From NCBI RefSeq assembly GCF_003334785.1, contig NZ_QOWV01000006.1: 64,000 bases of DNA; one strand, 5' to 3'. Source of the stretch: Escherichia coli (GTDB taxonomy: Bacteria > Pseudomonadota > Gammaproteobacteria > Enterobacterales > Enterobacteriaceae). A program made the position numbers and the translations under genes. Shown in pieces: positions 45,844 through 46,539 of this stretch. Under the pieces are notes generated by a model that made no database searches, had not been told where the DNA came from, and saw nothing but the letters and a program-made list of their open reading frames with translations. The first letter of the stretch is position 1, and every line of letters starts with the position of its first letter.

Positions 45844-46539
45844 ATGCTGAAGCGTTTCTTTATTACCGGTACAGACACTTCTGTAGGGAAAACGGTGGTT
45901 TCCCGCGCATTGCTACAAGCGTTAGCCTCCCAGGGAAAAACGGTTGCGGGATATAAACCCGTAGCGAAGGGGAGCAAAGAGACACCCGAAGGGCTGCGTA
46001 ATAAAGATGCCCTGGTGTTGCAGAGTGTTTCAACCATCGAACTGCCTTATGAAGCAGTTAATCCTATCGCGTTAAGCGAAGAAGAAAGTAGCGTGGCGCA
46101 CAGTTGCCCAATCAATTACACCCTCATTTCAAACGGCCTGGCAAACCTGACCGAAAAAGTCGATCATGTCGTGGTAGAAGGGACTGGCGGCTGGCGCAGT
46201 CTGATGAATGATTTGCGTCCACTCTCTGAATGGGTAGTGCAGGAACAACTGCCGGTGTTGATGGTTGTCGGTATTCAGGAAGGTTGCATTAACCATGCAC
46301 TGCTAACAGCTCAGGCGATCGCCAACGACGGGCTGCCGCTCATTGGCTGGGTGGCTAACCGAATCAACCCAGGACTGGCGCATTATGCGGAAATCATTGA
46401 TGTGCTGGGTAAAAAACTTCCGGCACCGCTCATTGGTGAACTGCCTTATCTGCCGCGCGCCGAACAGCGTGAACTGGGGCAATACATCCGCTTAGCTATG
46501 CTGCGCAGTGTGCTGGCGGTAGATAGAGTCACGGTGTAA
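45844..46539 (+). CDS. ynfK: Dethiobiotin synthetase paralogue YnfK (BioD-like)
   Basis: ORF 45832..46539; start at [17 protein letters not shown] (P-loop), 231 aa. Confidence 0.9.

Follow-up and report, generated by a model that had tools for sequence, protein, structure and literature searches.

How do two genes that run head-on into each other end, as proteins and as transcripts? The question is raised by ynfK and clcB, a convergent pair in a 64,000-nucleotide stretch of the Escherichia coli chromosome (NCBI RefSeq assembly GCF_003334785.1, contig NZ_QOWV01000006.1). We refer to this whole stretch as the window and use its positions throughout; the + strand is the coding strand of ynfK. 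The first gene encodes a paralogue of dethiobiotin synthase and the second a ClC-type chloride channel/antiporter, and their reading frames share 48 bp. A prediction made from the letters of the window alone (the original prediction) had pointed out this overlap and tied it to a nonsense codon in clcB. Our analysis supports a genuine and ancient dual-coding overlap and, separate from it, a hairpin just beyond the ynfK stop codon that is written in clcB codons and probably forms the 3' end of the ynfK mRNA.

A hairpin written in clcB codons is conserved across the family

Past the ynfK stop codon, the clcB codons for the residues T-G-E-Y-Q-L-L-P-G, a conserved ClC motif, form a perfect GC-rich palindrome (Table 1). 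As + strand RNA it is predicted to fold with a free energy of -21.5 kcal/mol (z -6.7). The palindrome is present in a single copy in the window, where none is expected by chance, and an origin by chance or as a repeat was rejected on these counts.

Conservation was followed in 80 Enterobacteriaceae, one locus per species, collected with YnfK as the query. The hairpin aligns without gaps in 67 sequences, of which 63 are distinct. Across the distinct sequences, the 11 stem pairs hold in 92.9% of alignment cells, compared with 19-43% after the partners are shifted by 1-3 columns. One pair switches its orientation, being G-C in 18 sequences, C-G in 36 and U-G in four, and unpaired in five. In terms of clcB, this switch is a replacement of Glu by Gln (GAG to CAG) together with a synonymous change of Leu from CTC to CTG, and it is found in two clades of a neighbour-joining tree. 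A second pair shows a change from G-C to A-U three times.

The synonymous sites of the stem are unusually still. Among the 37 conserved codons with four- or six-fold degeneracy in the last 216 codons of clcB, the median codon entropy is 1.5 bits. It is zero only at two codons, both in the stem, namely Pro CCC (65/65) and Thr ACC (65/65), and the stem Gly codon (GGG in 55 species, GGA in nine and GGC in one) has the fourth-lowest value. The third positions of the Pro and Thr codons show no change on the tree, and the flanking third positions show 5-20. In E. coli, CCC is a minor Pro codon, and GGG and GGA are minor Gly codons. Taken together, these sequence comparisons show a hairpin that is held by selection at synonymous sites of clcB.

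Could the palindrome nevertheless lack a function of its own? It might be a by-product of the ClC motif T-G-E/Q-Y-x-L-L-P-G (ACC GGN ... CCN GGT), whose amino acids are conserved for channel function, or it might act at the level of DNA as a protein-binding site or a cruciform. Two distant clcB-like genes with a similar motif and no ynfK neighbour bear on this explanation: they use CCG for Pro and lack the long stem, and they still retain 5-6 bp of ACCGG/CCGGT self-complementarity, although the control they provide is small. Protein conservation cannot, however, account for third positions that are invariant at CCC and ACC and confined to GGG or GGA in 64/65 species, while flanking third positions change repeatedly on the same tree. 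A by-product would also have no reason to covary across the Glu/Gln replacement or to persist after the loss of clcB (see below), and a site recognised in DNA would not tolerate G-T mispairs while excluding A-C mispairs in a strand-asymmetric way. Either form of this explanation is, in our judgement, very improbable.

A search of Rfam over positions 45700-47900 on both strands returned no match above threshold; the sole hit, SR6_antitoxin, scored 23 bits (E 0.52), below the gathering score of 55 for that family. Our literature searches found no paper describing a hairpin at ynfK-clcB. The hairpin is a new point, absent from the original prediction. It stands out by lying within a conserved coding motif of the adjacent gene and by the clean evolutionary signature that this leaves.

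The selected structure fits ynfK-sense RNA

Three variable internal pairs of the stem tell the two strands apart. Read as + strand RNA, these pairs include seven unpaired cells and 23 wobble pairs; read as - strand RNA, they include 28 unpaired cells and two wobble pairs. Synonymous transitions that keep pairing only on the + strand are frequent (GGG to GGA, CAG to CAA, GGT to GGC and CTG to CTA), and those that would keep it only on the - strand (ACC to ACT and CCC to CCT) occur in none of 65 species. Because wobbles and mismatches are distributed so differently between the strands, the selected structure fits pairing in the RNA of ynfK sense.

The hairpin persists at loci that have lost clcB

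An intact adjacent clcB is missing from 14 loci of the sample. In seven of them (L013, L015, L018, L023, L047, L075 and L077), a hairpin with the same arms lies just past the ynfK stop codon. It is followed by T8 in L015 and by T7 in L018, which gives it the form of a canonical intrinsic terminator at these two loci. Two further loci (L041 and L045) have canonical terminators unrelated to the hairpin, L057 carries a hairpin of another kind, and at the last four loci nothing clear is seen after ynfK.

The deletions themselves vary. Some loci have lost clcB alone and kept dmsD, in Trabulsiella a larger block is gone, and elsewhere other neighbours are found. Given these differing architectures, retention of the hairpin happened more than once. 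The assignment for L018 draws on RNAfold and the sequence, as the consensus terminator scan returned nothing there despite a 13-bp stem and T7; our guess is that the scan extended the stem into the A/T flanks and thereby shortened the tail.

A published Rho termination region maps to the 3' end of ynfK

In supplementary file 2 of Adams et al. 2021 (PMC7815308), K-12 coordinate 1666514 (-) is entered as a site of Rho termination, with the class 'primary' for ynfK and antisense to clcB. The coordinate maps to window position 46549, in the 42-nt spacer between the ynfK stop codon and the hairpin. In the same data, strand-specific reads of ynfK sense drop across the stop codon, from 85 to 11 in untreated cells and from 292 to 159 under bicyclomycin, and the ynfK 3' region has a Rho score of 4.2 with a significance score of 1.5e-6 (PMC7815308). 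That bicyclomycin raises read-through of ynfK weighs against purely intrinsic termination, at the 800-nt resolution of these data.

Transcripts of E. coli that depend on Rho end just past stable stem-loops without U-tracts, and these structures shield the transcripts against exonucleases (Dar and Sorek 2018, PMC6061677). The ynfK hairpin shares with these a stable stem without a U-rich tract and a read-through that rises upon inhibition of Rho, the latter on published data only. It differs from them in being located inside the coding sequence of a convergent neighbour, within a ClC motif, such that every stem base is also a codon base. As to a C-rich, G-poor rut region downstream of the stem, the C/G ratio is 1.3-1.7 over positions 46600-46750 (+) versus 0.83 inside ynfK, a mild skew as expected for the antisense strand of a coding sequence.

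With canonical intrinsic terminators, the hairpin shares a GC-rich 11-bp stem and a 5-nt loop shortly after a stop codon, as well as the T7-8 tracts of L015 and L018. A U-tract of roughly 7-9 nt is present only at these two loci, both without clcB. In E. coli and all clcB-bearing species, by contrast, the tail on the + strand, CAUUUCAC, is no such tract. The 10-nt stretch counted (46608-46617, starting with the last stem base) contains 3-4 T on the + strand in all 67 sequences, with a mean of 3.9. The clcB-bearing species have no canonical intrinsic terminator here because the + strand tail is fixed by the clcB codons for Met-Glu-Cys.

A third class, the bidirectional terminators of convergent E. 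coli gene pairs, is reported to work without Rho (Ju et al. 2019, as summarised in the preprint by Wang et al. 2022, bioRxiv 10.1101/2022.10.23.513370). A collision-type terminator of this kind at ynfK-clcB would pause both polymerases at the hairpin, and head-on and trailing collisions would then release them without the help of Rho or a U-tract. The locus does have convergent genes, overlapping transcripts and, at their junction, a strong hairpin that is transcribed from both sides and has non-canonical flanks, in line with what the preprint describes. But the hairpin lies inside one open reading frame (ORF) rather than between two: it is 90-117 nt upstream of the first base of the clcB stop codon, and halting clcB transcription about 90 nt inside the frame would abolish ClcB. 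The evidence further points to selection on one strand and to Rho involvement (score 4.2), the hairpin persists after loss of the convergent partner, and both genes are weakly expressed under aerobic conditions, which would make collisions rare. We consider collision-type termination quite improbable.

Among known kinds of element, the ynfK hairpin comes nearest to the stem-loops that protect Rho-dependent transcripts. It has kinship with intrinsic terminators too, and bidirectional ones fit it less well.

Alternative roles and points of doubt

Several observations weigh against assigning the hairpin to the 3' end of ynfK, beginning with the residual self-complementarity in the two clcB-like genes without a ynfK neighbour. 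Independent compensatory events are few, about two for the switch between G-C and C-G and up to three for the change from G-C to A-U. Overall pairing is similar on the two strands, at 92.9% (+) and 90.5% (-), so that the strand call rests on where the mismatches are placed. The tail on the - strand is the more T-rich of the two, with a mean of 5.4 T in 10 nt and seven in E. coli, and the consensus terminator scan flags only this strand (12 pairs, a loop of 5 and the tail TATTGATTGC). The clcB Leu codon directly beside the stem (46579-46581) is TTA in 38 species, TTG in 17 and CTG in nine, and a share of 55/64 for TTA/TTG is far from the usual Leu codon usage. This preference would suit either a U-rich - strand tail or a + strand A-tract, and a second role on the - strand is possible.

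The published data call for similar caution. The Rho score has a resolution of 800 nt, and bicyclomycin also lifts the signal upstream by 3.4-fold (PMC7815308). Both ynfK and clcB are absent from the curated Term-seq tables of 3' ends in that study, with no 3' end mapped at the hairpin, and the SMRT-Cappable-seq supplements contain no entry for either gene. ynfK is activated by FNR, and the full-text literature matches for the gene concern FNR regulation only; aerobic data sets may lack a signal at the ynfK 3' end for this reason.

Some of these points favour a hairpin that acts in clcB-sense (-) RNA, either as its sole role or as a second, bidirectional one. It would then be an intragenic intrinsic terminator that is sensitive to translation: the stem and its UUUAUUGAUU tail would halt polymerase some 80-90 nt before the clcB stop codon whenever the ribosome lags, keeping unproductive clcB transcription, for example past a nonsense codon, out of ynfK. 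The fold on the - strand is equally stable (-21.7 kcal/mol, z -5.8), its tail is T-rich and flagged by the scan, the Leu codon that follows the stem is mostly TTA or TTG, and 90.5% of cells pair. Against this stand the internal positions of the stem (28 unpaired cells versus seven on the + strand, and two wobble pairs versus 23) and the lack of any ACC to ACT or CCC to CCT change in 65 species. The hairpin is also kept, with a T-tract gained on the + strand, in lineages without clcB, and termination at this site would yield a truncated clcB message without a stop codon. We regard a terminator on the - strand as unlikely. If such a fail-safe did exist, the nonsense codon would make clcB-sense RNA less likely to reach ynfK, the opposite of what the original prediction supposed.

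As an observation apart, the TTA at 46579-46581 gives an in-frame TAA on the + strand, 13 codons past the stop codon of ynfK, and it makes up an A-rich run ahead of the hairpin.

With both sides weighed, we find it fairly probable that the hairpin is a 3'-end-forming stem-loop of the ynfK mRNA embedded in clcB. The overlap is a genuine, ancient and separate feature.

The overlap encodes the ends of two conserved proteins

An intact convergent clcB is present in 66/80 species of the sample and overlaps ynfK by 27-66 bp in all of them. The overlap is 48 bp long in 33 species, 45 bp in 15, 66 bp in 13, 27 bp in three and 39 bp in one, and it was inferred to be 48 bp in L076, which completes the 66. 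Its length is a multiple of 3 in every one of these species, and the register is constant. Codon stands exactly opposite codon in antiparallel orientation, and in the window each stop codon faces a Leu TTA of the other gene. ynfK measures 696 nt in 80/80 species. Across the 66 species, identity ranges from 86 to 99% for YnfK and from roughly 65 to 97% for ClcB. Such conservation of YnfK across the family genera sampled is unusually high for a 'spare' paralogue.

Most of the overlap sits in a tail that is specific to YnfK: its alignment with the structure of E. coli BioD (1a82) stops at residue 220, and its last 11 residues form a paralogue-specific end. Degraded remnants of clcB are found at L013 and L023, and 12 loci of the sample have no adjacent clcB. 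In these 12 species, the length of the YnfK tail is unchanged (12/12) and Asp-Arg is kept in 11/12. Codon choice, in contrast, depends on the presence of the partner gene. With clcB, Val226 of YnfK is encoded by GTA in 61/61 species and Arg228 by AGA or CGA; without it, codons 226 and 228 relax to GCC/GCG/GTT and CGT/CGC, respectively, and the stop codon becomes TGA.

The ClcB end is conserved as well. Of eight ClcB-like proteins with only 43-49% identity, seven carry the tail motif S-[IV]-Y and one has G-I-Y. These distant proteins came from a search of representatives, as the first homologue search gave only relatives at least 74% identical and thus no out-group. The two protein ends are thereby shown to be each under their own selection, with Ser-Ile-Tyr of ClcB and Val-Asp-Arg of YnfK written on the same nine bases. 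It is likewise shown that the sharing of the last 9-22 codons between ynfK and clcB, in one constant register, predates the split of the sampled Enterobacteriaceae genera.

An open frame alone would say little. In this register, antisense stop codons arise only from the sense codons TTA, CTA and TCA, and from E. coli codon usage a 15-codon antisense frame is estimated to be free of stops by chance in roughly two of three cases. As an open antisense frame is likely by chance, it is conservation rather than openness that shows the overlap to be real and maintained. Dual-coding antiparallel gene overlaps are a general class known from comparative genomics, and 48 bp is longer than most convergent overlaps. 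ynfK-clcB resembles other bacterial members of the class in making two real proteins from opposite strands, with synonymous freedom reduced in both genes. What sets it apart from the general class is its conservation at the level of the family, hence no mis-annotation. The ynfK-clcB pair is a true dual-coding overlap, neither a mis-annotation nor accidental crowding.

The clcB stop codon drifts among species, and that of ynfK never moves. The 3' end of clcB is seven codons shorter in L005 (E. coli E69, a GTDB species representative) and in L066 and L073 (Superficieibacter), where the overlap is 27 bp; the earlier stop of L005 arises through CAG to TAG. In the Enterobacter/Leclercia group, the usual clcB stop is lost and the overlap extends to 66 bp. 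Outside the overlap, a single degenerate ynfK codon is frozen, codon 4 (Arg, 45853-45855), which is CGT in 66/66 species and may reflect a constraint on the translation-initiation region. At L084, a distant ClcB-like gene of 45% identity likewise converges on its neighbour, which encodes a peptidase M28/M20, and the two share 4 bp (2751-2754). Two records carry titles that are probably due to mislabelling or contamination: L038 is titled Chryseobacterium sp. 18061, yet has a typical Enterobacteriaceae ynfK-clcB locus with a YnfK 88% identical, and L014, titled 'uncultured Raoultella sp.', shows no difference from L016, Citrobacter braakii, in the stretches compared.

The gene pair in the window and in K-12

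In the window, as part of the E. coli chromosome, the gene order is ynfL, mlc, ynfK, clcB, dmsD, ynfH. YnfK matches the NCBIfam bioD equivalog with 135 bits (cut-off 83.3), and ClcB, with its sequence repaired, matches the NCBIfam ClcB equivalog with 867 bits (cut-off 425). In K-12 MG1655, clcB (b1592) occupies 1665315..1666571 (+) and bidA, which is ynfK (b1593), occupies 1666524..1667219 (-), giving an overlap at 1666524..1666571. Gene order, orientation and the 48-bp overlap are identical to those of the window, whereas the window copy of clcB has a premature TAA at codon 126. The Prokaryotic Genome Annotation Pipeline (PGAP) annotates the 48-bp overlap in identical or near-identical E. coli records, and the 201 bp around it are at least 99% identical in 5,307/5,421 complete E. 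coli genomes.

The overlap is therefore already known as part of the reference annotation, which needs no correction; we found no paper that treats it or a ynfK terminator. Its exact extent, as noted in the original prediction, is borne out by the stop codons and by the K-12 and PGAP annotations. Re-annotation of the gene ends was considered as a way out of the overlap and rejected: the stop codons define both 3' ends, and both genes are well supported by their equivalog matches, so that re-annotation cannot remove the shared bases. The prediction was also right that transcription of each gene enters the other, and full-length mRNAs are necessarily complementary over at least 48 nt.

Two points of annotation differ between sources. 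The current K-12 entry for ynfK reads 'bidA, dethiobiotin synthetase BidA' (NC_000913.3, b1593), and our literature search did not find the naming paper. The K-12 start of clcB is the ATG at 47746-47748 (418 aa, starting MFRRLL), and PGAP places it 12 codons upstream at 47782-47784 (430 aa).

Table 1. Features of the ynfK-clcB junction, in positions of the window
Feature	Position	Strand	Basis or remarks
ynfK (bioD2; bidA in current K-12 annotation), dethiobiotin synthase paralogue, 231 aa	45844..46539	+	ORF list, PGAP and K-12 annotation
ynfK stop codon TAA	46537-46539	+	Sequence, ORF list
clcB, ClC-type chloride channel/antiporter gene, pseudogene here	46492..47784	-	ORF list, PGAP, K-12 annotation, translation
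clcB stop codon TAA (reverse complement of TTA)	46492-46494	-	Sequence, ORF list
Dual-coding overlap, 48 bp	46492..46539	both	YnfK residues 217-231 and stop; last 15 residues of ClcB and stop
Overlap core: GTA GAT AGA, YnfK Val226-Asp-Arg (+); TCT ATC TAC, ClcB Ser-Ile-Tyr (-)	46519..46527	both	
Spacer from ynfK stop codon to hairpin, 42 nt	46540..46581	+	Proximal 3' untranslated region of ynfK; antisense to the codons of the last transmembrane helix of ClcB
Hairpin: 11-bp stem ACCGGGGAGTA / TACTCCCCGGT (46582-46592 with 46598-46608), 5-nt loop gctga	46582..46608	+	Candidate 3'-end-forming stem-loop of ynfK mRNA
Tail 3' of the stem, CAUUUCACAU	46609..46618	+	Poor U-tract, set by the clcB codons for Met-Glu-Cys
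Premature TAA in clcB (Leu126 TTA to TAA, K-12 numbering)	47371..47373	-	Sequence, translation, PGAP 'internal stop'

The clcB nonsense codon is a rare allele

The nonsense allele, searched as an exact 61-mer, occurs in 9/5,420 complete E. coli genomes. Carriers include FDAARGOS_1248, VE-F10 and LR-64-2, and the distribution suggests that they form a small clade. The overlap is near-universal in the species and the family, which leaves no ground for tying it to the nonsense codon, as the original prediction had done; the codon is a rare and recent lesion unrelated to the overlap. That prediction further had ynfK transcripts antisense to clcB 'remnants', but their antisense relation to the clcB 3' end holds for every strain. 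By established polarity rules, a stop codon 880 nt upstream would lower clcB-sense transcription at the overlap and would create no new antisense relation.

The overlap could still matter mainly through the broken clcB, with ynfK RNA acting as an antisense against what remains of it, seeing that complementarity of at least 48 nt between the transcripts is unavoidable and that clcB does have an internal stop. Yet overlap and hairpin are universal in E. coli and its family, in contrast to an allele this rare, a pseudogene has no product to regulate, and polarity should leave less clcB-sense RNA at the overlap. There is very little likelihood in this reading.

A model for the end of the ynfK transcript

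In the model that we favour, in which the hairpin forms the 3' end of the ynfK mRNA, RNA polymerase leaving ynfK would transcribe through the hairpin. Termination would probably be mostly Rho-dependent and would occur just downstream, the U-tract being poor in E. coli. Exonucleases would then trim the RNA back to the hairpin, which would protect and stabilise it. The hairpin may add weak intrinsic termination, and where clcB has been lost it appears to evolve into a full intrinsic terminator. The resulting 3' untranslated region of ynfK would be about 70-80 nt long, and in every strain roughly 120 nt at the 3' end of clcB would be complementary to the ynfK mRNA.

Polymerases that transcribe clcB have to read through this palindrome some 90 nt ahead of the clcB stop codon, where a translating ribosome would probably prevent folding. 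The clcB transcript would then end inside ynfK without a dedicated structure. There is no mirror-image hairpin for clcB inside ynfK, since positions 46300-46500 (-) fold no better than shuffled sequences (z +1.0 and -0.4), and the 3' half of ynfK outside the overlap has no unexplained frozen codons. With neither a structure nor a frozen codon beyond the clcB stop, Rho is the likely terminator there.

We speculate further that the 3' untranslated region of ynfK, antisense to clcB over about 120 nt, serves as a cis-antisense arm that couples FNR-induced ynfK to the fate of the clcB mRNA, for example by way of a duplex that RNase III cleaves, and that the hairpin is a family-wide ynfK element whose presence in clcB codons shaped ClcB. 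This extension is doubtful. If true, the overlap would be a regulatory device rather than tolerated crowding, and the Glu/Gln change beside the Tyr of the ClC motif would be tied to a synonymous Leu change 14 nt away.

Implications for ynfK, clcB and the family

The long convergent overlap of ynfK and clcB is shown here to be a stable dual-coding arrangement. Next to it, the hairpin would offer a clean natural example of a gene whose transcript-end signal lies within a conserved coding motif of the gene beside it. Synonymous sites appear frozen across a bacterial family for its sake, and an amino-acid change in a channel protein appears to be compensated at the level of RNA.

There are practical consequences for work on either gene. 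Synonymous recoding of clcB codons 388-396 (numbered as in K-12, with the count taken from the stop) could interfere with ynfK, and clcB deletions that remove 46582-46608 may alter the ynfK mRNA, the standard knock-out collections being a possible case. More generally, scans for synonymous constraint can expose signals that belong to the adjacent gene.

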